From Escherichia phage vB_EcoM_Goslar, in the sequence record NC_048170.1: a DNA stretch of 64,000 bases, one strand, 5' to 3'. A program made the position numbers and the translations under genes. Position 1 is the stretch's first letter. Each line of letters starts with the position of its first letter. Positions 7,828 through 51,203 of this stretch are shown here, in pieces. The notes under the pieces were generated by a model. The model saw nothing but the letters and a program-made list of their open reading frames with translations. It was not told where the DNA came from and searched no databases.

Positions 7828-9624
7828 TCAATCGATTATGTCGCGATCGTTAATTTCTACAATTTCTTCATCGAATCGACCGACGTCTTTCTTCAAGCCT
7901 GCATTGGTTGCTGCAACGTCATTTGCAATTTGTGGGGTAATGATTAACCGACCGCGCTCATCGATAGGTGCGTACATACTGAACTTCTGACGTCCGGTTG
8001 GTTCGGAGTGTGGAAGATTCAGATAGCTTGCACAGAACGGGATGGAACCACTAACCAAACGACTCTCGTCAGCCAATGCAGCACCGCCTGCGTTTTGGCT
8101 CTGGAGAACAACATGCGTGCTCACTTTGAACAGCATGCAATCACCAGGTGACTGAATCGATGTTGCCACTTTCTCACGTTTATCACGATTGCTCTGGATA
8201 TTGAGAATCGCTTCCGTTGCAACTTGATTTCGCAACGCCTTCTGTACATCGCGATTGGTCATCTCTTTACGGTTGTTCTGTCGTTTACCACGTTCTGTGG
8301 TTTTAAGATGGAACCCCAGTTTAAAGATGCTCTTACGCACATCCTCCATGACATATTCCAACACCATCAATTCCTTACCGAACATCGTCGTGGTATCAAC
8401 ACGACTCATTTCGATAGTGACATTGTCAATCAGATACGCCATAAATTCGTAGAAGTCGTCGCAAGGAATATTTTCCTGTTTGAACTTCTTCTGTTGAATC
8501 TCGTCAACGTAAAGATCGAGACTGTCGATGTGGTGGTTTACATCACGCAACAAACGCGCATCCGCATTGTTGTTATTAAAGATAATCAAACCGAGTAATG
8601 TACGCCAATGGTCTGGCGCATTCGCGAACTCCTCAACCGGATAGTCTTCCGGAAAACGATCGTAATAACGGTCGATGAGATACAAGAATGCACCGACAAG
8701 GCCAAGAACAATACGTTCCGTGCCTCCACGTCTTACAGCAATTTGAATATCAGGATGTTTGTAACGTACAGCGCTAGCGCTACGGCTTTTACCGCTTTTG
8801 CTGATACTAAAGCCTTTAGGAATAACCCCCATGGTGCGATAGATTACCCATTGGTCACGCGGAAAATCACGTTCAGCAAGGTTCCGTCCGGTTACGGCTT
8901 CGACACCTGCAAAACGTCGGAAACACTCACCCACCCCGTACTTCGCAAAGAGATAGTGACCCAGTGTGGTTACGCTGGTGTGGTTGATGTTGTCACCGTT
9001 CACTTTACTTTGTTTAGTAAGATGATAGATTTGCGACCAGGGTAATGACAGGTAATGACGATAATCGATACCGGTCGGTGTATCATTGCTCAGGAACTGA
9101 TACGGTGTACGTTTAACCGTGATTTTGTCACGCGGAAGCATGATGAACGCCATGTCTTTCGTGTAACTGATTACGGGGTCAGCGAGTACCGCACTGAGAA
9201 TGAAGTTCGCACCACGTAGACGCATTTTACCACCCTGACCTACCGCGGGCAATAGGAGAGGATGTCGGATAATGCAGTAGTCCTTTCCTGGTTCACGACG
9301 GTCACCTGATTCCATCGCGCCGTACCAGCGGAATTCCAGCATCACCATAAACACATCGGAAGGCGCAAGGTCGAAGGTCAGCTTACCGCTATCCTTCCCT
9401 TTGGTTTTCTTTCCTCCGCTTAAGTAGTGGAACTGTTCGCGGGCCATACAACGACGCAGGCCATGATACACCAGATCCTTAGGTAAACTATCTTTGCTGT
9501 TCCGCCAAAGACGATCAACATAGGACTCAACATCTTGCATCTTATCGACGACGATGTTGCGTGCTATCTTCTCGTTCATCTTCGGTGCAAGCTCAGCGAC
9601 AGCTTTGCAGAATCTAGGATCCAT
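7828..9624 (-). CDS. hypothetical protein (about 598 aa)
   Basis: ORF track frame; track start 9627 is GTG, adjacent ATG at 9624 has AAGGAG 6 nt upstream. Confidence 0.8.
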   Translation of the reverse strand: MDPRFCKAVAELAPKMNEKIARNIVVDKMQDVESYVDRLWRNSKDSLPKDLVYHGLRRCMAREQFHYLSGGKKTKGKDSGKLTFDLAPSDVFMVMLEFRWYGAMESGDRREPGKDYCIIRHPLLLPAVGQGGKMRLRGANFILSAVLADPVISYTKDMAFIMLPRDKITVKRTPYQFLSNDTPTGIDYRHYLSLPWSQIYHLTKQSKVNGDNINHTSVTTLGHYLFAKYGVGECFRRFAGVEAVTGRNLAERDFPRDQWVIYRTMGVIPKGFSISKSGKSRSASAVRYKHPDIQIAVRRGGTERIVLGLVGAFLYLIDRYYDRFPEDYPVEEFANAPDHWRTLLGLIIFNNNNADARLLRDVNHHIDSLDLYVDEIQQKKFKQENIPCDDFYEFMAYLIDNVTIEMSRVDTTTMFGKELMVLEYVMEDVRKSIFKLGFHLKTTERGKRQNNRKEMTNRDVQKALRNQVATEAILNIQSNRDKREKVATSIQSPGDCMLFKVSTHVVLQSQNAGGAALADESRLVSGSIPFCASYLNLPHSEPTGRQKFSMYAPIDERGRLIITPQIANDVAATNAGLKKDVGRFDEEIVEINDRDIID

Positions 9625-9663
9625 CACACACTCCTTTCAGAAAGTTGCTTAAGCAGATTAAAG

Positions 9664-11438: not shown

Positions 11439-13661
11439 TCAGTTAGTCTGAACCGGCAGCTTGATGTTTTCAGTGTAGACCTTACGCAGGTTCACAACGT
11501 TAATCAGACCCAGCAGCGGGCAGTTGTTAACGAAGCGGCAGCGCGGCTGAACCATGGTTTCTTTAGAAACCTGACCGTTACGGGTAACCTGAGCAACAGA
11601 TACCAGTTCCGGTACATACAGGAACATACCGAAGGTCAGCGGATCCGGAGAACCCTGGATACCACGAGACAGGGTCACGAAGATCTTATCGCGCAGCATG
11701 ACGTTCGGGTTATCTACAACCACGAAGTTGAAGCTTACACCAACGGTACGGAAATCGCCATCGGTCTGCAGGAACTGCGGGATGTAGTTGTCAGTTGCTA
11801 CTACGCAACGCGGTTTCTCATCAGCGTTGGAAGACAGCAGCTGCAGAGCTGGCTGATAACCAGACTCGGAGTACATGCGGTATGCCATCTCACGAATCAC
11901 GTTCATGATCGCAGCAGACACTTCAGCACGACGTTCTGCAGTGGTGGTACCCTGAACAGATTTCTCCAGGTCCAGATTGATTTCTTCGAACCACGGACGG
12001 ATCAGGTAACGACCGAAACCTTCGATCTGGATGTCACCGAACTGACGGAAGCGAGAGGTCGCAACCGCTTTCAGTGCGTCTTTGTAGCTGAACAGTTTCT
12101 CAACCATCAGGTTGTCGAAACGTGCGTTAGCAGCTTGGATCAGAACGTCCAGGTCAGCAGCGTTTTCTTCCCAATCCAGCGGACGAGGAATGGAGAACGG
12201 AGCCAGCAGGCCGATTGCGTAACGTTCTTGCTTCATGTTGAAGTCAAGGTGCTTACCGCGCTCACGACGGTTGCTGTTGTTACGACGGATACGCAGTTCG
12301 TAACCAACCAGTTTGAAGCTCAGGTCTTCAGCCAGTTGTTTGAACTCTTCGCTCTTACGCGGTTGTTCGATGTTGTCCTGATCAACCAGGCGATACAGTT
12401 CAGCGTTAGCGCCGTTAACACGCAGACCCGCTTTCTCTACGTTGGAAGAACCGTAAACTTCGATCGCCAGCTGAGCAGCGGATTTCGCATCGATGATGTC
12501 CTGCAGCGCTTCGGCTTTCGCACCTTTAACGTCTTTGGTGTTCTCATCAACGAAGATGGAGTGGGTGTCGAACGCCAGGGTCATTTTGCGGAAGTCGCCT
12601 TCCAGGGATTTCTGGAAACCGTTGGTGATCAGACCAGATACGTCGAACGGTACGTAAGAGGTTTTGCTGTGCTTGGTAGATTTGATTTCCACCAGGATTT
12701 TGGTCAGCGTGATCTGAGCATCCAGCGCGTCGGTGTTGTCGCTGTAACCGTTAGCCAGAATGCTGTCGTCTTCAGCGATACCGATCATGTCGATCAGTTT
12801 ATCAACAGCCAGGTAAGACGTTTTATAAGTTACGCCTTTAATTTCGATGTCGCGCGGAGCAACGATAGCTTTGTCAACGAAGTACTGCGCGTTAGCATCG
12901 TCAGCACGATAGATCGGATGCAGATCGGTCACGTCGTTGGACAGAACGTCGTTATACATGAACGCATCCAGCAGCGGACGACGTACCCAATCAGCCGGAG
13001 TACCGTCAGCGTTACGACGCAGGTGGTTGAACACCAGCGGACGACGGAAAGATACGTCGTAACCGATCTGGTTCGGAGCCAGAACGATGGTGTTGTACAG
13101 TTCGTTACCCATGCGGCTCAGACGAGAAGCCTTCACGTTGAACACGACGGAGTACGGCATCATGTCACGCAGTTCTTTCTGGTCGTAGGACAGCTGAACC
13201 AGTTCTTCAGATTCGCAACCGCAGGAATCAGCAGCCATCATGACGAAGTTAGAGCTGTCAACTTCACGACCTGACGGAGTGGTGCTGATGTTCATGGAAC
13301 GTGCTTGTTTAGCATATTCTACCGGGTTGCCATGAGCCAGCATGATCAGTGCTGCTGCACGAGCCTGCTGTGCGTTCATGGTGAACAGCTGTTCTTCAAT
13401 ACGCTGCTTCTCTTCCGGAGTGGTGGTTTCGAAGCCCAGCAAGGTCAGAACCGGTTCTTCGGCTTTACGGATGTCGCTGCTGAAGCTCTTAACATCCATT
13501 TCGTTAACCAGTTTGTCCATGGATTTGAAATCAACCTTAGAAGCAGATTCCATAGACAGGAAGGTGTTCTCCAGACCTTTGTCTGCTGGTTTGCTACCAT
13601 TAGCGGTCAGGAACTGGCGAGTGGCCGCGACCTGTTGGCTAAGAAGGGTTTTATCATTCAT
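11439..13661 (-). CDS. major virion structural protein, putative major capsid protein (740 aa); tail sheath is the alternative
   Basis: ORF track; ATG with AAGGA 8 nt upstream; strongly optimised codon usage (CTG, CGT, GGT, AAC, TTC, GAA) unlike neighbours; size matches phiKZ-type capsid proteins (recalled, not searched); 149-nt leader. Confidence 0.6.
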   Translation of the reverse strand: MNDKTLLSQQVAATRQFLTANGSKPADKGLENTFLSMESASKVDFKSMDKLVNEMDVKSFSSDIRKAEEPVLTLLGFETTTPEEKQRIEEQLFTMNAQQARAAALIMLAHGNPVEYAKQARSMNISTTPSGREVDSSNFVMMAADSCGCESEELVQLSYDQKELRDMMPYSVVFNVKASRLSRMGNELYNTIVLAPNQIGYDVSFRRPLVFNHLRRNADGTPADWVRRPLLDAFMYNDVLSNDVTDLHPIYRADDANAQYFVDKAIVAPRDIEIKGVTYKTSYLAVDKLIDMIGIAEDDSILANGYSDNTDALDAQITLTKILVEIKSTKHSKTSYVPFDVSGLITNGFQKSLEGDFRKMTLAFDTHSIFVDENTKDVKGAKAEALQDIIDAKSAAQLAIEVYGSSNVEKAGLRVNGANAELYRLVDQDNIEQPRKSEEFKQLAEDLSFKLVGYELRIRRNNSNRRERGKHLDFNMKQERYAIGLLAPFSIPRPLDWEENAADLDVLIQAANARFDNLMVEKLFSYKDALKAVATSRFRQFGDIQIEGFGRYLIRPWFEEINLDLEKSVQGTTTAERRAEVSAAIMNVIREMAYRMYSESGYQPALQLLSSNADEKPRCVVATDNYIPQFLQTDGDFRTVGVSFNFVVVDNPNVMLRDKIFVTLSRGIQGSPDPLTFGMFLYVPELVSVAQVTRNGQVSKETMVQPRCRFVNNCPLLGLINVVNLRKVYTENIKLPVQTN

Positions 13662-40030: not shown

Positions 40031-42823
40031 TTATCTTACGTTATTGCTATTCTGCTGTTCGCTGAACCAGCCATACACCTTGAGATCGGTACCGTATTTC
40101 AATGCGATATACGCATTCAGCGCAGCGCAGAACAAAGACGCGAATGCCCATATCAGCGAAGGATCGACGTCTTCCGTTACCACTGGGAGAGTATTATCCG
40201 GTTCCCATGATGGTGAACTGTCCATGAACGTCGCGTACCATCCCCGCCGTTGTTCTTCGGTGGTAAAGTCGCTATGGGGTTCCAATGCTTCTTTTGCCAG
40301 ACGTCGATATTCGAACATATGCGTTGCTAAAGCCGATGAGTTACCAGATTCGCCCTCATAGTTCGGATCCACCGCATAACAGAGTTCTGTTGAATCTAAC
40401 AAAGCAACCGCCTGTGTGATGCTGTCGGCAGTGCCTGCACCATAGAGCTCGATAGACCGCGAAAGCTTTTCACAGAACGCATTTAACGCGGAAGGATTGG
40501 ACACCTGAAGGTCAAGGCCTAATGTCCACGGATAGTTACTGAATACACCCGTAAACCGTGGCATAACACCCAACAGATGCTGTCCGATTACGGCACGGTT
40601 ATAAACAGCCCTGTTATAGACTTGAAGCGCGGCCTCCAGGGCTTGGTTATAATGACGACGAAGCTCGTCACGAGAGTTGCGGAACCTGTTTGCCGCAAGA
40701 CTTGTGGCTGCGACGCTACAAACATCGTAATTGGTGGACGAGAGCACAACCTCGTTAAGATCGAACGCTTCCTGTTTCAATGTTCCGCTAACAGCCGCTG
40801 CTTCGCTGTTCGCTTTATCGACAACTGTACTCAAAGCGTTAATATAACGTTTAGCTCGGACCTCCAACCATTGTGCGATACCGAGAATATCCACCGCAGC
40901 TTTAGCAAGATCACGTGCATTCACGATTTCGTTCTTCAATGCCCCTAAACCTTTATTTTCAGGCGATGAGGCTTGTTGACGAATCATGCTGTTCAACATG
41001 GTAAGCAGATTATCCAACTCATGTCCGCTGACCTTGTTACGTGCATCGGTAATCGGCCCTTGCAGGAATTTACGGCAACCGTCGTTGTATCGAATCAGTT
41101 TATCCACATCGATAGATTCGTTCGTGGATTCCTTGAACTGATCCTTCAATTCTTCACGGTAATCATGGATTTCACTTGCGAGATTATCGATAGTGATACC
41201 ATCATGTCCAAGAAGAACTTTATTGAAGTTACCTTTCTCGAATGCAAGAGTAAGACCTTCACGAATCTTAGCGAGTTTGTCCTGATCAAGTTCACGACCG
41301 TTCGATAGCTCTTTCACTTCCGAGCTGATTAATGCCGAAACGTTACCCAGATTGTCGGTAACCCCTTTGAACGCTCCCGACCAGATCGTTCCTGCTTCAG
41401 CATATTTCGCAATGGTCTGAATACCGACGGTATGTAACGATGCTAAGCGTTTCTTCGTGCCTTCGGTAAGCAGTGCGTCTTTAGCTCGCGTAAGCTGACT
41501 GTTATTAGCTTCCGCCTGCTGAATCGCTGCTTTCGCACTTCCATTACGCCAGCTCTTAACCAGCCAATCAACCAAACGTTTTAGGATATTGACGGTGTAT
41601 TCCATTGTCCGCCGTAACGTTTCCCACGCGCTTTCTGCGGTATAGATGCCGTACCCTTCCATCTTCGTTGGGTCAAAGAAACCTTCCTGCACGAGATCGG
41701 TACGTGTGTAGCCATCAGCAGCTTCTACTTCCGCCTGGGTTTTATCCCAGAAGTCGTCGCTCTTTGCAGCAATCGCTGTATCTTTAACGTCCAGGATGAT
41801 CTGACCAACCGTTTGTGCAAACAGCAAGGCTGCACGTACCGATTGTGCGAACATCCGCTGATATTTGATTCGAACGCATTGCATCTGGGTTAGCAGATTC
41901 AGTTGTGCGATCCCATCCAAGGTGCTATCCTGAGCAAGTCCTTCGGCTTTAGCGATAACCTGTTTTACACGTTCAGCGACATCACCGTACTGCTGGCAAA
42001 CATCCCGCAGAATACGTGCCGCGAAGACCCCGGTACCGATATAGTTCAATAGGTCTTTTAACGACCATTCGGTCGGACAATCGGTCGGCGCAATAGGGAG
42101 TAAGCAACCATCACCGTCCATGAATCTCTCTAATGCGCTAATATCCTGATTTTCTACGCTCATGGGGATATCGACATCAGCCGCTTGCAGATCCAGCATC
42201 TGTTGTAGGATGTTGGTATCGGCTTGTACAAGCGTCGCAAGCGCTTGGCTGTGTGCGATTATTGGTAACGCAGGTGACCATACTGCAGCAAGCTTGTCGG
42301 CGTGACGTTGAATGGCATACCCCATATCCTCGATCACATCGGGATGCTCGATAACCCCCTGAAGCGTTTGATGTAGCTCACCGAGTTGCTGAGACAGATC
42401 GACCATCATGGTGTTGAAGGTTTCGTCATCCTCTTTGTGGTTGTCCAGACGCTCGAGTTCATGTCGAAGCAATGTAACGAGCTGTCCGTTGCCTTCTTGC
42501 TTCAGCTTGCTTTCCATTAACGTAATGGCTTTATCGACGATCTGACACGCTTCACGAAAACCGGTTGTGGAAGGAAGCTCTGTCCATAACGCCAGCGGTT
42601 TACCGTCAAGGGCTTCCGGCATCGATAACGAAAGCATAGACAGTTGTTGACGTGATACTTGCTGTTCACGGTGTAATGTTTCTTTTAACGCCAGGAGATC
42701 GTCAAGAAACGCGCCGTTAAGGGTGGTCGTACGTGGTGTTGAATTAATACCGTCAGTTAACGATTCAAGCACCAGGAGACCGTTATCAGCTGAAGAGAGT
42801 CCCGCGGCAAGATATTTGTTCAT
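40031..42823 (-). CDS. large hypothetical virion protein (930 aa)
   Basis: ORF track; ATG with GGAG 7 nt upstream; internal LVQEGFF motif; hydrophobic C-terminal segment. Confidence 0.85.
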   Translation of the reverse strand: MNKYLAAGLSSADNGLLVLESLTDGINSTPRTTTLNGAFLDDLLALKETLHREQQVSRQQLSMLSLSMPEALDGKPLALWTELPSTTGFREACQIVDKAITLMESKLKQEGNGQLVTLLRHELERLDNHKEDDETFNTMMVDLSQQLGELHQTLQGVIEHPDVIEDMGYAIQRHADKLAAVWSPALPIIAHSQALATLVQADTNILQQMLDLQAADVDIPMSVENQDISALERFMDGDGCLLPIAPTDCPTEWSLKDLLNYIGTGVFAARILRDVCQQYGDVAERVKQVIAKAEGLAQDSTLDGIAQLNLLTQMQCVRIKYQRMFAQSVRAALLFAQTVGQIILDVKDTAIAAKSDDFWDKTQAEVEAADGYTRTDLVQEGFFDPTKMEGYGIYTAESAWETLRRTMEYTVNILKRLVDWLVKSWRNGSAKAAIQQAEANNSQLTRAKDALLTEGTKKRLASLHTVGIQTIAKYAEAGTIWSGAFKGVTDNLGNVSALISSEVKELSNGRELDQDKLAKIREGLTLAFEKGNFNKVLLGHDGITIDNLASEIHDYREELKDQFKESTNESIDVDKLIRYNDGCRKFLQGPITDARNKVSGHELDNLLTMLNSMIRQQASSPENKGLGALKNEIVNARDLAKAAVDILGIAQWLEVRAKRYINALSTVVDKANSEAAAVSGTLKQEAFDLNEVVLSSTNYDVCSVAATSLAANRFRNSRDELRRHYNQALEAALQVYNRAVYNRAVIGQHLLGVMPRFTGVFSNYPWTLGLDLQVSNPSALNAFCEKLSRSIELYGAGTADSITQAVALLDSTELCYAVDPNYEGESGNSSALATHMFEYRRLAKEALEPHSDFTTEEQRRGWYATFMDSSPSWEPDNTLPVVTEDVDPSLIWAFASLFCAALNAYIALKYGTDLKVYGWFSEQQNSNNVR

Positions 42824-42838
42824 AAAACACTCCGTTGG

Positions 42839-42869
42839 CCTAGGGGAAGGTTTTCAGCCTTCCCCTAGG
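42839..42869. terminator. hairpin cctaggggaagg-ttttcag-ccttcccctagg
   Basis: Perfect 12-bp stem, 7-nt loop; between stop 42883 and start 42823. Confidence 0.6.
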
Positions 42870-42882
42870 GTTATAAACACAA

Positions 42883-45687
42883 TTAAGCTAATTTACCGAA
42901 ACCGGCTTTCTGCAGTTTCTCGTTGATGATTTTCGCTTCAGCGAAGACGTAATCGCGGTAGGCGGTCACTAACGCATCCACACGTGAACGCAAGGCTTCT
43001 TCGAAGCTATACCACGCAGCGATTTCACGAATCTGTGCGTTGATATAATCAACGGTTGAGCGAAGCTCGGTTGCGTTTTCCTGCGGGATGGCTTTCACCT
43101 GGCGAGCAACGTCATTTAAACGACGGAACTGTGTTTCGATTTCTTTAAACTTATTGTCGGCAAGTTTGCTGAATTCGTCACCAGAACGGGTAAATAACAG
43201 ATAGCTGTTGCCATCAAGTGCGGTCGCTAACTGCTGAAGTACGTTGGTGTCCGGATACACAGGAGTACCGCTTTGCAGTACCTTCTCACCGAATTCCGCG
43301 AAGTCCTTCGGTGGTAAGTGCGCAGACGTTGTCAACTCGTTGAAACGGAAAGTCAGCGAACTATCATACAACATCCGGTACGCTTCCATACCCTGCTTCA
43401 TGGTGCCAGCCAGGTTGGCCAGACGCGGAGCAATCTCACCCTCTTTAGCGCGTTTCTGGTCTTCTAACGCCCCTTCGAGTTCTTTACACTGGTCGTTCAG
43501 ATACACGATACGATCGGGACGCAGACGACGCATCTCACGAAGAATGGTATCCAGCTTACCTTCCTGGAAATAACCTAGCGTTAAAGACGTACACGCTTGC
43601 TGAAGACGATCGAACACCGGTAAGGTTACCATCTCCTTACGGATACCATCAACAATCGCAGAAACAGCCGAAAGTTTCTGTTCTGTCGTTAATGGAACAT
43701 CAGAGACCGACTTGCTGGGCGCACCAACAACGTTACGCATTGCGTCGGTATCCTCGGTTTTATCAACCTCTTTACGAACATGCTCATCAGGAACATAAAC
43801 GTTCGCATTACGTTTCGCCTGCTTGATGGCATCGTTGGCCGCTTTTTCGGTGGCTGCTACGCTATCGGCACGTTTCTTCAAGAGTTCAATAATCCAGAGC
43901 ACCAGACGACGAATCGCAGTATAGGCCGTCGTGATGATGACACCGATAACAGCCATCTTCATGATACCGAACGATTCCATGGTCGGCTCTAATGCCTGGT
44001 CTGGCATATAGCGTTCACGCAGCTCCAGATAGATCTGCTCATCCGGTTTGCTGATCTCGCCACGATGCGAAGTCCGATAGATGGCTTCGTCAATCTCAAC
44101 AAGATCTTTGCGTGCCTGACGGTCTGTTTCGGTCAAATAAGCGCAGCCGGATACGTCGTCTTCAAAACTTTCGAACTTAAAGAAATCGACAACCATCTTG
44201 GCAAGCGCCTCTTTCTTAGCAGGATCGAGTGTCTTCGCATCTTCTTTTTGCTTATCCATTTTTTCCTTGAATTTCTCTTTGTAGTCATTCAAGGGTTTTA
44301 CCGCTCTTGCTTTCAACGCGTTATAGATAGCTTTCCACTCATCGTTACGTTCGAGGACAATGAAATGGTTTTTGAGTTCGAAAGCGCGATAGCGTGCAAC
44401 GAGCTGTTCTACCTGAATATGAGCGAGTTGGATATCCATTAACCAACGCGACATCGCCGAGATCAAACGGCTATAAGCGAACAACGTTTGGTAGGTTAAC
44501 TTCATGTATGTTTCATACAGCTCAATATCGCCGCTCTGAATATTGGCTGTTGGATTCATTTCCTTTGTTGCCTTGAAGACCTGTTCTGCTTCTCTCAGCG
44601 TCTTTTCGAACTTAACGTCATTAAACGCAGTGAATGGTTCAGCCAACTCATGCATTTTATCGTGGAGTTCGCGGATCCAAGCTTCCTTGCTGTCGCGGAT
44701 GGTGTTTTCATCATGGAGCACGGTTTGATGTTTTCGTACCCATTCTTCCACGATATCAGCAGCGGAAACAATCGGAACGCGATCTGAAATGAGCGGGACG
44801 ATCGTGTGAAGCGCCCCGACACATTCTGGCGTGTCCCAGTGTTTCTGGAGTTCATCACGGAAACGGTTAATGTTTTCTAAGGTGGTACCTAAATCAAGGA
44901 AAGTGCCGCCATTATGACTCATCTGTGCAACCAGATCGGCAAATACCTTTTGTTTTTCGATGACAAAAGGAACCATCCGCATAAGCCATTCAGCAGTTGC
45001 TTTAGCCTTTTCTTTCAGGTTCTTATCGGCGATTTCTTTAAGGTTAATCGCGCTACCGTATCCTGCAAGTTCGTTGTAGACGTCGTTAACCGTCATCTCT
45101 TTATCCAACATTTCTTTGAAACGTGGATAATCTGCACCTAACGCGTCGATGACTTCTTGGATGATGTCGTCTGTGGTAGCGATAAATTTATTTGTGCCGC
45201 CGTAATGGTTCCAGATTTTCTGTAGCGTCTTCTTAAAGAATTCGAAGACGAATGTCCAGATACGCTTAATGAGTTCCCAGACTTTCTTCGCACCATCGAC
45301 AAACAGTTTAGAGACTTTGGCAACGAATCCTTCCTGCACCAACTCAACGCCGTTACGTGATGGAATTTCGGTGAAGAAAGCATCTGGCAGTTGTTTCGGG
45401 AACGCGTCACCAAGACGCATACGCAATTCGGGTACATCGGCACGAGAAATACCGCGCGTCGTTAACTGCTCGTGAAGACGAACGTTTTCTTCACCAGAGG
45501 CTACGAATTCGTTAACGTCAAATGACACCAGTTCTTGATCTTCGGTGGTGACGACGCTTGAACCATCACTGGTTTGGATGTCTTCGTCAGGGAATGCCAT
45601 GAGCATACCGTGACGCATTTCAACCACTCCGTAATCGGTTGCTAAACCGAATTCGTTGTGATCGGGGGTAATAACTGGGATACTCAT
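42883..45687 (-). CDS. large virion protein (934 aa) carrying the paralog-family N-terminal motif
   Basis: ORF track; ATG; VELVQEGFVAKVSKLFVDGAKKVWELIKRIW aligns with VVEGFKDTVVKAMKKIWDII of gene 30350..31666. Confidence 0.85.
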   Translation of the reverse strand: MSIPVITPDHNEFGLATDYGVVEMRHGMLMAFPDEDIQTSDGSSVVTTEDQELVSFDVNEFVASGEENVRLHEQLTTRGISRADVPELRMRLGDAFPKQLPDAFFTEIPSRNGVELVQEGFVAKVSKLFVDGAKKVWELIKRIWTFVFEFFKKTLQKIWNHYGGTNKFIATTDDIIQEVIDALGADYPRFKEMLDKEMTVNDVYNELAGYGSAINLKEIADKNLKEKAKATAEWLMRMVPFVIEKQKVFADLVAQMSHNGGTFLDLGTTLENINRFRDELQKHWDTPECVGALHTIVPLISDRVPIVSAADIVEEWVRKHQTVLHDENTIRDSKEAWIRELHDKMHELAEPFTAFNDVKFEKTLREAEQVFKATKEMNPTANIQSGDIELYETYMKLTYQTLFAYSRLISAMSRWLMDIQLAHIQVEQLVARYRAFELKNHFIVLERNDEWKAIYNALKARAVKPLNDYKEKFKEKMDKQKEDAKTLDPAKKEALAKMVVDFFKFESFEDDVSGCAYLTETDRQARKDLVEIDEAIYRTSHRGEISKPDEQIYLELRERYMPDQALEPTMESFGIMKMAVIGVIITTAYTAIRRLVLWIIELLKKRADSVAATEKAANDAIKQAKRNANVYVPDEHVRKEVDKTEDTDAMRNVVGAPSKSVSDVPLTTEQKLSAVSAIVDGIRKEMVTLPVFDRLQQACTSLTLGYFQEGKLDTILREMRRLRPDRIVYLNDQCKELEGALEDQKRAKEGEIAPRLANLAGTMKQGMEAYRMLYDSSLTFRFNELTTSAHLPPKDFAEFGEKVLQSGTPVYPDTNVLQQLATALDGNSYLLFTRSGDEFSKLADNKFKEIETQFRRLNDVARQVKAIPQENATELRSTVDYINAQIREIAAWYSFEEALRSRVDALVTAYRDYVFAEAKIINEKLQKAGFGKLA

Positions 45688-46124
45688 GCATTCTCTCCTT
45701 GCAGTGCGTTAGCGAAAGCTGTTGCGAGCTGCGCAACCAGTTTCGGATCAACGCCTTCGATAACGTCAGGCAGCCCTGCGGTTTCTTGGTCACGAACAGC
45801 GGAGGCTAATAACAGCATGGTTTCAGGCGCGGTTGGCTCATGCACCATGCGGTAACGCAGGCACCAGAAGTAGCGGGCAACGTCTAACGCATCAGCCAGC
45901 CCAATAACCAGCACCTTGTTCAGTTTATCCAACCCGTCACGGATTTTAGGGAGATGTTCACGAACGAAGATGCTATCCGCAGTCAGATCTTCTTTTTCAG
46001 CGAATACCGGCATGCTGTAACCGGCGATGTAACCTGCGGCAATACTTAACGCGCGGGTCTGTTGTTCGGCTGGGAAGTCACGTACCAGGTCTTTCAGCTG
46101 AACGGCGAAATCAGAAATATTCAT
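45684..46124 (-). CDS. hypothetical protein (146 aa)
   Basis: ORF track; ATG with AAAGGAA upstream; stop overlaps downstream start (ATGA). Confidence 0.65.
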   Translation of the reverse strand: MNISDFAVQLKDLVRDFPAEQQTRALSIAAGYIAGYSMPVFAEKEDLTADSIFVREHLPKIRDGLDKLNKVLVIGLADALDVARYFWCLRYRMVHEPTAPETMLLLASAVRDQETAGLPDVIEGVDPKLVAQLATAFANALQGENA

Positions 46125-46157: not shown

Positions 46158-47468
46158 TTAGGCGATAATGGAATCAAGAGTCGCTGCTGTTTTGAACAGA
46201 TCGCTGTTCATTGTAGAAGAAAGGACTTGCTGAATTTCTTCCTGTTTAACGGCTTTACGAACTCCAGGACGAAGGATAAGCGTAACCATCTGCATAAATG
46301 TACGGTTGTTGTTCATCGCGCTTAACGTTTCATCAATTGTTTTGATGGTATCTAACGTAGTGGAGCGTATGTCGCTAGGGAGGTCACGATCTTTCAGACG
46401 TATAATCAAATCTTGTTTGATTTTTCTGAATCGTTCCATATCGTTGTCATAGATGCTGTATGTCGGATCTAACCAAACTGCAAGCGCCATAGCAGCAACA
46501 AATATTGCCATACCAAGAATATTAACCGAGGTGAAGCTGATCGCTATCAAAATTGTCACGGCTGCATCTTTAATGAAGGAGAGCCAGAACATCGTTTTGG
46601 ACTTCATGGAGTTGGTGCCATAAAGCCGAAACATTTTAGCAAGCCCGCTAACGAGATACTCCCCACTGCCGTGACGTGTAGCGAACTGATCGGCCATGAA
46701 TTCGGAAGCAACGTCGGTATATCGTCCAGCGTTGTTTACATTTCTTAACTGCATCGCTTTGTTAGACACGTAAACCGTGTACCAGACACTACCATCGTCT
46801 GAATCACTGATTTTATTTACGTCGACGTTAGTATCTAGCGTTTTGTTTAACGCTTTCGCCAGTTCGATACGTTTTACCTTATCGGTTGTTCCCAACAGTT
46901 CGCGCTGCACGGTCATGATTGAGGCTTCGACACGAACCGTTTCCGACAATGTTTCAAGGAAAGTAAACGCATGACCGATTTCATGCAGCATTATGGCTGC
47001 TTTTTCTTCCGGAAGAAAGGGTTCTGTCGCTGTTAGCAATTCATACGTGATGGCAGAACGAATCTTCAACTCCTCAAAAATACCGTAAACGCGACCTTTT
47101 TCTAAATCGACGTAACCGACAGGTGCATCTTTAATCTTCTTAAGAAGTGCGACACCATCGACACCACGCATCCATAATCGATGATAGTCTGCCAATATCG
47201 CGTTGTTTGTTGAAATATCCGGCGGGTACACGTAGGCATTCATCTGGCCCATTTTCACGTCAACCGAAAATTCGATGTTCAACCCCGTATAGCGTTTAAC
47301 CATCTCGGTTAAACGACCGTCCTTGAAAACGTTTAAAACCTCTTTTTTATCCAGTCCCTGTTTGCTTCTGAAGAACTCGGTCATTTCCTTGAACAAGGAA
47401 CCATCCTGAAACTTGATGGCCTCCATCGTTAATTCGTCATGACCATACACGCGTTGTAGTAATGACAT
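46158..47468 (-). CDS. putative membrane-associated zinc metallopeptidase (HExxH motif, 436 aa)
   Basis: ORF track; ATG with GAGAG upstream; AAIMLHEIGHAF encoded at 46985..46971 (verified by direct reading); two hydrophobic segments near residues 290-335. Confidence 0.7.
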   Translation of the reverse strand: MSLLQRVYGHDELTMEAIKFQDGSLFKEMTEFFRSKQGLDKKEVLNVFKDGRLTEMVKRYTGLNIEFSVDVKMGQMNAYVYPPDISTNNAILADYHRLWMRGVDGVALLKKIKDAPVGYVDLEKGRVYGIFEELKIRSAITYELLTATEPFLPEEKAAIMLHEIGHAFTFLETLSETVRVEASIMTVQRELLGTTDKVKRIELAKALNKTLDTNVDVNKISDSDDGSVWYTVYVSNKAMQLRNVNNAGRYTDVASEFMADQFATRHGSGEYLVSGLAKMFRLYGTNSMKSKTMFWLSFIKDAAVTILIAISFTSVNILGMAIFVAAMALAVWLDPTYSIYDNDMERFRKIKQDLIIRLKDRDLPSDIRSTTLDTIKTIDETLSAMNNNRTFMQMVTLILRPGVRKAVKQEEIQQVLSSTMNSDLFKTAATLDSIIA

Positions 47469-47689: not shown

Positions 47690-49189
47690 ATGAGCGAACA
47701 AGAACGAAAACCTAAGAAGAAACTGCTCGGTATTCAATGTCGACACATCAGCTATAACGAAGCGAACGATGGCAGCAAGAACGACCTCATGATCGCAAAA
47801 GAGATCATGTTCTTTGATGATAATACGCAAGCGACGAACCTTCGCTTCTTTGAGAATTACAAACGTCCGTTTTGGGTGACAGTAGAGAGTAAACGTAAGA
47901 ACAAATATAAAAAGGAAAGCGAGAAGCTGTCACATGTGCGACGCTACGATGTCCGTCAAAGTGAACTGGTTGAAAAGATCAGTTCGGTGCTTTATAAAAG
48001 ACGTGCCGATGATAACACCCGTTTACAGCAGCTTGCACGGAGTCCATACCTCTATGGAACGGACGTTAGCGCCAGCTGTTATTTAAAAACCCAATACAAT
48101 ACAAAATGGCCGGAATACGTCGATAAATTACCCGCTTCTATCGCCTGTTTCGATATCGAAACTGACGTTGTCCATGGACACGGTAAGATCGTCTGTATGT
48201 CTATTACAATGGGATACAATGCGATACTTTGCTATACCAAGGACTTCGTTGGTCATATTCCGAATGCGATTGAGAAAACTCATGAGAAGATTCGATATTA
48301 TCTGGCCGAACGTCTGAATACCAAAGAAGATCCTCACGCGTTCGAAAAATATCATTACGATGTGCGAATCGTAGAAAGTCCGGCACAAGCGGTCATCCAA
48401 TGCATGCAAAAGGTTCACGAATGGCAGCCGGATTATCTCCTCGGCTGGAATATCGCGTTCGATATTCCGCGCATGCTCCAGGCACTGAACGAGGAAGGGT
48501 ATCGTCCCGAGGATGTTTTCTCCGATCCTCGTGTACCACCTAAATATCGTATTGCTCGCTGGGTACCACCGAAGACCGACAAGGTATCTGCTTCAGGTCG
48601 TAAAACCAACCTTACCCTCGAGCAGACCTGGCCGATGTTTTATACGATGGCTACGTATCAGGTTATGGATGCGATGTGTGGCTATAAGTTCGTTCGTTTA
48701 GGAAGACCGGATGAAGGACGCTATTCACTCGATGCGGTATTAGAGCGAAATAAATGCCATACGAAATTAAAAGCGATTCCTGGTACAGAAGGGTTCACGG
48801 AGCTTGCGTGGCACGAAGAAATGCAAACGAACCATCAAATCGACTACGGCGTATATAACCTTTGGGATAACCAAGGCATCGAGGCGTTGGACCAGAAAAC
48901 AAAAGACTATTCGATGACCATCCCTATCCGTTTAGCGGCGTCGGATTTGAAAGATTTCAGTTCTAACCCTAAACGTATCTGCGATAAACTTTTCTTCGTT
49001 TATCTTAACCGTGGGGAAGTCATGGGATGCACCGCCGACGACATGACCCAGGAAGAAGATAAGTGGGTTATCTCACGAACCGGACATATCGTCACATTAC
49101 CATGCGATCTCATGGCGGACAACGGCATTCATCTCTTCTGGGATATGCCTAATTTAAGGAGCTATATTCGATTATTTGTTGCGGATTAA
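47690..49189 (+). CDS. DEDD-type 3'-5' exonuclease-like protein (499 aa); possible exonuclease part of a split family-B DNA polymerase; probable exon 1
   Basis: ORF track; motifs ACFDIETD, GWNIAFDIPRM, YGVYNLWD in canonical Exo I/II/III order; no polymerase motifs; followed by HNH ORF and intron-like core. Confidence 0.65.
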   Translation: MSEQERKPKKKLLGIQCRHISYNEANDGSKNDLMIAKEIMFFDDNTQATNLRFFENYKRPFWVTVESKRKNKYKKESEKLSHVRRYDVRQSELVEKISSVLYKRRADDNTRLQQLARSPYLYGTDVSASCYLKTQYNTKWPEYVDKLPASIACFDIETDVVHGHGKIVCMSITMGYNAILCYTKDFVGHIPNAIEKTHEKIRYYLAERLNTKEDPHAFEKYHYDVRIVESPAQAVIQCMQKVHEWQPDYLLGWNIAFDIPRMLQALNEEGYRPEDVFSDPRVPPKYRIARWVPPKTDKVSASGRKTNLTLEQTWPMFYTMATYQVMDAMCGYKFVRLGRPDEGRYSLDAVLERNKCHTKLKAIPGTEGFTELAWHEEMQTNHQIDYGVYNLWDNQGIEALDQKTKDYSMTIPIRLAASDLKDFSSNPKRICDKLFFVYLNRGEVMGCTADDMTQEEDKWVISRTGHIVTLPCDLMADNGIHLFWDMPNLRSYIRLFVAD

Positions 49190-49257: not shown

Positions 49258-50469
49258 ATGTTACATGAGGTTTACGAGATGGAAAAATCTATACATACTC
49301 AAACTGGAACTATTGACTATCGCGATTCAGCATATTTGCCGTACACAAATCATCGTTATCGTATATTTGAAGATGGCGAGTTGTACGACTATAAAGAAGA
49401 TAGGGTCGTCCCTTACGAAGTTGTAGACGGTGTCCCTTATGTTGAAATCGATTGGTATAGAGGCATTGGAAAATACGATCTCGGTATGATCATTCTCACC
49501 GTTCTTGAACGGGTTGCTTTACCAGATCACCTTTACGATGAAATTGAATCGTTGTTTGTGGACGGAGATCCGACTAACTTTTCGTATAGCAATCACATCT
49601 ACCGTTTCCGTAATGGGCCGTTAGAAGTTGAGGGATTCGAAGGTTATTGTTATATTCCGTTTGCATCTCGTTACGCGATAAATAAAGAAGGACATTGTAT
49701 TAGTCTTCTTTCGTTGGATCCTATCACGTGGACGAAAACGGTTCAGCAAGGCACACGTCTTGGCGGATACGCTTATCGTAAAGTGGTTCCCGACAGCGGG
49801 TTTACACCGCAGTTATATCGTCACCGAGCTATCATGTTAGCGTTTACGAGATATGATGCTAACGTTGTGAACTTAACTGTAAATCATAAAAACGGAATTA
49901 AAGGTGACGATTGGTTTGACAACCTCGAATGGGCGACATATGCCGAGAACAATCAACATGCTCGTATGGCAGGGTTGTGTATAGGTACGTCAAAACCTGT
50001 TTTGGTTTATGATTACCGTGCACGAATCGAACGTCGTTTTAATAGTATCGCAGAAGCGGAACGTGCTTATCCGTACGTGCCGAAAGGACGTTTCAAATGG
50101 TGGGTAAACAATCCTCCGAAACGTATCCCAGAATGCGATTTATACATCAAGTTTGCCACGGACAATACGCCTTGGCCGGAGTGGAAACTTGGAGAAGATC
50201 GTCGTGTCGAGGACACCGACGGTCGCGGTATTCTCGCTATTAATAAAGAGACGAACGAACGACATGTGTTTCCATCAGTAACTGCTGCCGCAAATGCGTT
50301 AGGAATCTCCTGGATTACCGTAAGACGTCATTGCGATCGTCGTGCAGTACCTACGAAACAGCCTTGGTGTTTTCGTTACGCTGATGATATCGCTGCCATG
50401 CCTGATTTCGATGTTAATAAATTAGTTCCTAAGAAGAAGCGTGTATTTAATGTCCCATTAGAACGATAA
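49258..50469 (+). CDS. HNH homing endonuclease (403 aa)
   Basis: ORF track; motif TVNHKNGIKGDDWFDNLEWATYAENNQH (His-Asn-His) plus NALGISWITVRRH helix-turn-helix-like segment; alternative ATG at 49279 has GAGG upstream. Confidence 0.8.
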   Translation: MLHEVYEMEKSIHTQTGTIDYRDSAYLPYTNHRYRIFEDGELYDYKEDRVVPYEVVDGVPYVEIDWYRGIGKYDLGMIILTVLERVALPDHLYDEIESLFVDGDPTNFSYSNHIYRFRNGPLEVEGFEGYCYIPFASRYAINKEGHCISLLSLDPITWTKTVQQGTRLGGYAYRKVVPDSGFTPQLYRHRAIMLAFTRYDANVVNLTVNHKNGIKGDDWFDNLEWATYAENNQHARMAGLCIGTSKPVLVYDYRARIERRFNSIAEAERAYPYVPKGRFKWWVNNPPKRIPECDLYIKFATDNTPWPEWKLGEDRRVEDTDGRGILAINKETNERHVFPSVTAAANALGISWITVRRHCDRRAVPTKQPWCFRYADDIAAMPDFDVNKLVPKKKRVFNVPLER

Positions 50470-50945: not shown

Positions 50946-51203
50946 GAGCTCGATATATCTTCAAGCTATCCAAATGGGCAGATACTGCTCAATCTATCCA
51001 GAGCATGTGTTTTTCGTGAGCTCTCACGCATTGAGGGCGTCTCTGACTATCAATTCAGGAAGCTAGGTATCAACTTTATCACTGGAGGTAAAACGAACGC
51101 TGTAGACTTCTGTAGAATCGTTTATAAAGCGCCATCGATGTTTGAACTTTTAGAACATTTCGATGCGACGCGTCCAAAAGAGGAAGCGCGGACCATCGAA
51201 TGA
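50946..51203 (+). other. candidate 3' exon: start-less open frame ending at TGA 51201..51203
   Basis: Frame open 50946..51200, protein-like translation (..ACVFRELSRIEGVSDYQFRKLGINFITGGKTNAVDFCRIVYKAPSMFELLEHFDATRPKEEARTIE), followed by hairpin terminator 51251..51282; splice site not determined. Confidence 0.3.

Follow-up and report, generated by a model that had tools for sequence, protein, structure and literature searches.

A predicted M48-like zinc metallopeptidase with a membrane-type hairpin, gp067 of Escherichia phage Goslar, as a candidate capsid-packaged enzyme

Gene gp067 and its family

The open reading frame (ORF) listing of a 64,000-nucleotide (64-kb) stretch of Escherichia phage vB_EcoM_Goslar (accession number NC_048170.1; hereafter the window) contained an ATG-initiated, minus-strand ORF of 436 amino acids (aa) at 46158..47468, and its product was identical in exact-sequence comparison to gp067 of this phage (QBO63860.1/YP_009820752.1), labeled "hypothetical protein" in that database entry and "Virion structural protein" in UniRef. 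A preliminary description, made from the sequence, had taken the product for a membrane-anchored zinc protease foreign to the standard structural inventory of jumbo phages. It was concluded here that gp067 represented a distinct, phage-specific family of M48-like gluzincins, distant from M48 as defined in Pfam. The features of gp067 and of its surroundings are listed in Table 1.

Table 1. Features of gp067 and of neighboring or other genes in the window
Feature	Coordinates	Strand	Remarks
gp067 coding sequence	46158..47468	-	predicted M48-like zinc metallopeptidase; orthologue of SPN3US gp45 and phiKZ gp84
N-terminal propeptide, residues 1-16 MSLLQRVYGHDELTME	47421..47468	-	predicted; capsid-targeting type; predicted cut after T-M-E16
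Catalytic domain, residues ~62-283	46620..47285	-	five beta-strands, active-site helix 153-193, variable helical insert 197-245, Glu helix 252-283
HEIGH, residues 162-166	46971..46985	-	His162 and His166 zinc ligands, Glu163 catalytic base (predicted)
E256-FMAD260-QF262-ATR265-HG267	46668..46703	-	third-zinc-ligand motif typical of M48; from invariant residues and ZMPSTE24 alignment
Hydrophobic helical hairpin, residues ~292-335	46464..46595	-	predicted two-pass membrane anchor; from Kyte-Doolittle scan and AlphaFold2 (AF2) model
Y340-D341-x4-R346 motif	46431..46451	-	directly after the hairpin; from conservation across the gp067 family
C-terminal all-helical domain, residues ~343-435	46164..46442	-	AF2 helices 343-358, 365-384, 391-420, and 423-435
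146-aa ORF	45684..46124	-	co-directional, downstream of gp067; SPN3US gp46 and ORFs of PhiEaH1 and a phiKZ-like phage match in size and position
Overlap of 146-aa and 934-aa ORFs	45684..45687		4 nucleotides
934-aa ORF	42883..45687	-	one membrane-type helix, residues ~574-597; position of SPN3US gp47
930-aa ORF	40031..42823	-	one C-terminal hydrophobic helix, residues ~889-908
DNA polymerase, residues 1-499	47690..49186	+	first part of split gene
HNH endonuclease ORF	49258..50469		within the insertion in the DNA polymerase gene
DNA polymerase, residues 499-583	50946..51200	+	second part of split gene
Polymerase-family protein	7828..9627		
Major head protein	11439..13661		
DnaB-like helicase	14387..16081		

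Residues 12-432 of the 436 residues of gp067 were matched by PHROG 2767 (unknown function; E=2.6e-79). A megablast search of the locus against a collection of phage records gave no hit. A tblastn search with gp067 found full-length relatives of <30% identity in 249 jumbo-phage records, with hosts including Pseudomonas, Erwinia, Salmonella, Vibrio, Serratia, Ralstonia, and Klebsiella; SPN3US was matched at E=4e-18 with 95% coverage, and phiKZ-type phages at E=2e-17. A family profile search against 1.84 billion representatives gave 3709 clusters at 50% identity, and among the best 150 of these nearly all members were 400-460 aa long, the profile matching end to end. The family was phage specific and widely conserved in phiKZ-like, nucleus-forming jumbo phages. 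The orthologues were (i) gp45 in SPN3US (43079..44431, annotated as "putative virion structural protein 1") and (ii) PHIKZ084 (gp84) in phiKZ, a phiKZ-type orthologue in phage KTN4 being annotated as "putative structural head protein". The proteins SPN3US gp45 and phiKZ gp84 resembled gp067 in length (413-450 aa), in full-length homology at 21-30% identity, and in the hydrophobic hairpin; they and the PhiEaH1 protein also contained both the HExxH and the Glu motif, while the gp067 sequence had diverged to ~25% identity. This distribution (249 phage records, 3709 clusters), together with the status of SPN3US gp45 as a head protein verified by mass spectrometry and cut by the prohead protease (PMC5694885, PMC10052503), contradicted the earlier statement that gp067 was not a standard jumbo-phage structural component.

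Several partial sequences of phiKZ gp84 were also found under the title "hypothetical protein, partial [Klebsiella pneumoniae]"; the contigs in question measured 230-680 bp, and read-level contamination of those assemblies by a phiKZ-like phage is the probable cause.

Zinc site, fold, and membrane hairpin

The HEIGH motif lay within AAIMLHEIGHAF (encoded at 47000..46965) and was situated in AF2 helix 153-193. The six-frame stop-free stretches of the window (29,225 aa) contained three instances of a bare HExxH, so HExxH alone was not beyond chance, and the case for a protease therefore rested on conservation and fold. Conservation was scored over 196 collected family sequences for motifs, over 194 for the hairpin, and over the 162 that had a recognizable cut site, as well as in two alignments of 20 sequences (21-78% identity) and 34 sequences (20-94% identity), most rows being below 32%. 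HExxH was present in 196/196 homologues, and so was ExxxDx[FY]xx[RK], always 89-99 residues after HExxH. The residues His162, Glu163, Gly165, His166, Glu256, Asp260, Phe262, Arg265, Gly267, and Arg346 were invariant in both alignments. Because the catalytic base Glu163 was conserved as well as the zinc ligands, gp067 is very probably an active enzyme, as judged from these sequences. The Y340-D341-x4-R346 motif following the hairpin was conserved as well: Tyr340 was invariant in the 20-sequence alignment and present in at least 90% of the 34-sequence one, Arg346 was invariant in both, and YD was the commonest pair of first residues (159 of the 196 homologues). No counterpart of this motif was identified among the M48 enzymes, and a part in substrate binding or in completing the active site is possible.

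The sequence and structure comparison was then applied to known zincins. The family profile, searched against the sequences of the PDB, matched ZMPSTE24 (E=0.008) with both motifs aligned: (i) "tpeEiaAilLHEIGH" of the profile with "kneEvlAvlgHElGH", whereby HEIGH was paired with HELGH (residues 335-339) of ZMPSTE24, and (ii) "rssEqlADqFAtRhGaGrdLvtaLdKl" with "rrfEfqADaFAkklGkakdLysaLiKL", whereby the Glu256 motif was paired with ZMPSTE24 residues 412-441 (RRFEFQADAFAKKLG), the Glu of which is taken here to be Glu415 in our numbering, the third zinc ligand of ZMPSTE24. HEIGH was likewise aligned with HExxH of HtpX and BepA; hhalign to single Escherichia coli sequences gave probabilities of 74% for HtpX and 47% for BepA, with only the strand-plus-HExxH region aligned, which was supportive and not decisive. 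Pfam Peptidase_M48 (PF01435) recurred as a weak match in 23 of 34 relatives (best E=2.5e-05), and no other zincin Pfam model recurred in more than three of these 34. An AF2 model built on the family alignment had a mean pLDDT (predicted local distance difference test) of 77 and a pTM (predicted template modeling score) of 0.78 and displayed the five strands, the helices, and the hairpin (291-332) of Table 1; its more distant structural matches in BFVD were named "Zincin protease" (two proteins of Bacillus phage AR9), "Peptidase M48 domain-containing protein", and "Beta-barrel assembly-enhancing protease". The AR9 proteins (323-425 aa) and the "Peptidase M48 domain" proteins of uncultured myoviruses were matched over the whole chain (E 1e-4 to 1e-7), but at only 11-17% identity and with template modeling scores (TM-scores) of ~0.4 to gp067; AR9, like the phiKZ group, encodes multisubunit RNA polymerases. 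The predicted fold appeared to match M48 peptidases best. SprT-like and M56 (BlaR1) families were rejected, both giving weaker matches than M48.

M48 enzymes (Ste24/ZMPSTE24, HtpX, BepA, and Oma1; clan MA gluzincins) shared with gp067 (i) a beta-strand followed by the HExxH active-site helix, (ii) the "...eE..A.i.HEiGH" signature, and (iii) an ExxAD..A motif that holds the third-ligand Glu and follows after 65-100 residues (65 in BepA); moreover, HtpX, Ste24, and Oma1 are membrane associated, to which gp067 was likened by its predicted hairpin. Unlike them, gp067 had (i) a single hairpin coming after the complete catalytic domain, (ii) a helical insert between the two motifs plus a family-specific C-terminal helical domain with the YDxxxxR motif, and (iii) a family packaged in a virus capsid (measured for SPN3US gp45). 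In HtpX, one pair of transmembrane (TM) helices precedes the catalytic domain and a second pair separates HExxH from the Glu; Ste24 has a seven-helix chamber. An HtpX-type (M48B) assignment was rejected on topology, there being no hydrophobic segment before or between the motifs of gp067 and its sole hairpin lying after Glu256; because of this different membrane topology, gp067 was not filed under the HtpX or Ste24 subtypes.

The hydrophobic stretch was composed of two helices, TMFWLSFIKDAAVTILIAISF and NILGMAIFVAAMALAVWL, with a 19-residue Kyte-Doolittle mean of up to 2.3, corresponding to AF2 helices 291-313 and 317-332. A hydrophobic stretch after the Glu motif (median span 37 aa) was found in 189/194 relatives, and such stretches elsewhere in the protein were rare (six relatives). 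The hairpin sequence was not conserved in the 20-sequence alignment, as expected of an anchor and not of a catalytic element, while the C-terminal helical domain was conserved across the family. Lys/Arg residues were present on both flanks of the hairpin, and from this weak evidence the catalytic and C-terminal domains were inferred to share one side of the membrane.

The preliminary description was right about the protein in several respects: the ORF position and that of HEIGH (46985..46971, residues 162-166) were exact; the Kyte-Doolittle scan recovered the two strongly hydrophobic helices placed ~130 residues past HExxH; and the picture of a zincin-type metallopeptidase-like protein with a membrane-type hairpin held. 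A check for a third zinc ligand downstream had been suggested, and the invariant Glu256 was found there in an ExxADxFxxR motif; M48, the closest family, was one of the three named for comparison (M48, M56, and SprT-like). It had been allowed that HExxH might be lost in homologues or that profile searches might lead to a non-protease family; HExxH was kept in all homologues, and these searches gave no non-protease family.

Capsid packaging and proposed role

The zincin character of the family is already known from sequence analysis and is not a new discovery: Iyer et al. (2021), citing the SPN3US gp45 accession, named the family a "conserved, uncharacterized zincin-like metallopeptidase" (PMC7824862). 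No experimental work on the activity, substrate, or role of the gp067 family was found in the literature, nor was any functional study of phiKZ gp84/PHIKZ084 or Goslar gp67. In published proteomics of SPN3US, gp45 is a head protein with a precursor of 50.3 kDa and a mature form of 48.2 kDa (PMC10052503 Table 2), entered as "Head, unknown function"; its 20-residue N-terminal propeptide is removed by the prohead serine protease gp245 at ASE-20 (PMC10052503, PMC5694885), and this cleavage was seen by mass spectrometry in virions and in replicate purified-head preparations (PMC10052503). The propeptide is short and comparable in length to the capsid-targeting sequences of T4 (PMC5694885). Seven cleaved head proteins, gp45 among them, are shared with related giant phages, and the phiKZ counterparts of these seven, which are not named, are also cleaved (PMC10052503); phiKZ gp84 was matched to gp45 by homology in the present analysis and not in that study.

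Glu16 of gp067 fell in the same alignment column as Glu20 of SPN3US gp45 (ASE-20), a column with at least 90% Glu, and the residue two positions before this Glu was S/A/T/G in 153 of the 162 homologues with a recognizable site, Thr (as in gp067) accounting for 31 of the 162. Compared to SPN3US gp45, the predicted propeptide of gp067 was 16 instead of 20 residues long, and its site was T-x-E instead of A-x-E. As far as the alignment tells, the most likely arrangement in gp067 is a targeting peptide of 16 residues with the cut after T-M-E16, and by orthology with SPN3US gp45 it would be packaged in the Goslar capsid.

It is proposed, with a chance judged slightly better than even, that gp067 is an active M48-like protease that travels in the capsid, is ejected along with the DNA, and becomes anchored in the early infection vesicle or the inner membrane of the host. 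In this scheme, gp067 would exit the capsid together with the DNA, as do other proteins of the head interior that have membrane segments; its hairpin would insert into the inner membrane of the host or the lipid vesicle around the injected Goslar genome; both the catalytic and the C-terminal domain would be exposed on one face of that membrane; and the enzyme would cleave membrane-proximal substrates, either co-ejected phage proteins (e.g., the products of the variable, TM-bearing ORFs downstream of its gene) or host inner-membrane proteins. The evidence for this proposal was the intact M48-like active site, the conserved membrane-type hairpin, and the capsid packaging and trimming of the SPN3US orthologue. 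An analogy only, without homology shown to gp067, was offered by the ejected virion RNA polymerase of coliphage N4, which is packaged in the capsid and has a C1 subdomain with a conserved HExxH of unassigned role (PMC13434306); that HExxH belongs to a domain of a 3500-residue polymerase and not to a separate membrane-anchored protein.

Several points weighed against the proposal. Pfam Peptidase_M48 scored gp067 itself at 11.0 bits against a cut-off of 20.3 (E=0.38), and Foldseek against the PDB returned only non-significant helical-repeat matches. The known SPN3US and phiKZ cleavage sites carry Ala, Ser, or Gly two residues before the cut, versus Thr in gp067. Within a capsid, such a hydrophobic hairpin might instead be shielded by the other members of a protein complex. 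The functional link between gp067 and the downstream ORFs was one of position only, because these show no detectable sequence similarity to SPN3US gp46 and gp47. Finally, ejection, insertion of the hairpin into a membrane, and proteolysis of membrane-proximal proteins by gp067 are inferred.

The protein gp067 might alternatively serve inside the prohead as a second maturation protease, cutting or clearing head, scaffold, or inner-body proteins beside the prohead serine protease, which is what Iyer et al. (2021) suggested for AMR59696.1, the orthologue in SPN3US (PMC7824862). Such a role, considered unlikely, would agree with the presence of the protein in the head and with its conservation together with heavily processed head proteins. 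However, all catalogued head cleavages of SPN3US are assigned to gp245 and reportedly follow one tight logo, the listed sites ending in Glu; the study mentions no orphan cleavages for which another enzyme would be needed; and ~80% of the SPN3US head proteins are uncleaved (PMC10052503). A prohead role would also leave the conserved membrane-type hairpin unexplained, and it was for this reason, together with the assignment of the cleavages to gp245, that it was rated below ejection with the DNA.

The newly made protein might also act in the membrane of the producing cell, in lysis, in superinfection exclusion, or by cleaving a host defence or envelope factor, with incorporation into the virion being incidental. 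Proteins of the membrane or envelope are the targets of M48 enzymes such as HtpX and BepA; insertion of the hairpin from the cytoplasmic side would be feasible, and the Lys/Arg residues at its two flanks would fit a cytoplasmic location of both ends. This was judged quite improbable on the following grounds: (i) the SPN3US orthologue has a capsid-targeting-type propeptide cut by the prohead protease and was detected in purified heads (PMC10052503), and packaging in the virion makes roles in lysis, exclusion, or defence less likely than a role at or just after ejection; (ii) the gene lies among virion genes and not among lysis genes; and (iii) it is widely conserved, while a patchy distribution is expected for host-directed proteases by Iyer et al. 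(PMC7824862).

Capsid targeting of the orthologue and invariance of the catalytic Glu made both action in the producing cell and a structural zinc site less likely still than prohead maturation. With a structural zinc site, gp067 would be a pseudo-protease that tethers procapsids to the membrane or helps in their assembly. Capsid assembly in nucleus-forming phages reportedly takes place at the cell membrane, and the hairpin is the only membrane-type element in gp067. Two findings made this very improbable: the catalytic base Glu163, which would be superfluous at a purely structural zinc site, was present in 196/196 relatives, and only ~20 N-terminal residues are removed in SPN3US, so that the mature head protein keeps its hairpin (PMC10052503) and, as a tether, would need to be extracted from the membrane.

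As for the site at which an ejected, membrane-anchored gp067 would work, the injected Goslar genome and capsid proteins are described as enclosed in a lipid vesicle, and no protein components of the vesicle membrane were noticed in that preprint (bioRxiv 10.1101/2023.09.20.558163). It is conceivable, though improbable in so specific a form, that gp067 inserts into the membrane of this early-infection vesicle and that its proteolysis is needed for the vesicle to work or to be left; gp067 would then activate co-injected membrane proteins that admit nucleotides and release mRNA, or would open the vesicle so that the genome can pass to the phage nucleus. If so, it would be the first enzyme assigned to the recently discovered membrane-bound stage of infection by nucleus-forming phages. 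A widely conserved enzyme that is packaged in the capsid and has both a membrane anchor and an intact protease site is, in any case, an obvious candidate for the early-vesicle step or for envelope penetration. Added by the present analysis were (i) the family-wide invariance of the full catalytic set plus the conserved hairpin, (ii) the joining of the zincin assignment of Iyer et al. to the head-protein and propeptide data from SPN3US and to the hairpin in a testable hypothesis, and (iii) a concrete placement at the ejection or early-vesicle step in a phage for which tools to test it exist, Goslar being a main model among the intensely studied nucleus-forming jumbo phages.

Genomic neighborhood

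The gp067 gene was divergent from the DNA polymerase gene starting at 47690 (phrog_3011), and its orthologues in SPN3US, PhiEaH1, and the phiKZ-like PA02 were likewise divergent from a DNA polymerase gene and followed by an ORF of ~146 aa. The junction had been correctly placed opposite an intron locus in the preliminary description, the opposite gene being that of the DNA polymerase with an insertion bearing an HNH endonuclease. This insertion of ~1.76 kb split the polymerase gene into two parts, while a contig ~97% identical in the flanks contained an uninterrupted gene for a 583-aa DNA polymerase; the insertion looks like a mobile intron or homing element.

Downstream of gp067, the 146-aa ORF had a weak match to phrog_30916 and showed no BLASTP similarity to SPN3US gp46; its overlap with the 934-aa ORF suggests translational coupling within an operon. 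The 934-aa and 930-aa ORFs gave no PHROG match and no similarity to SPN3US gp47, and their mutual similarity was at most marginal. In SPN3US, this position is taken by gp47, which is essential, has a TM helix, and is a candidate ejection protein; strong divergence at this position among related phages was noted by its authors (PMC5694885). The stretch 40031..45687 on the minus strand thus appears to be a hypervariable candidate ejection-protein region adjoining conserved virion genes, unrelated in sequence to that of SPN3US and twice as large in Goslar. A conserved virion protein of ~990 aa was encoded further along; its identity to the SPN3US "putative virion structural protein 2" (gp48 by gene-order count) was 29%. 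Genes for a major head protein, a DnaB-like helicase, and a polymerase-family protein were also present in the window.

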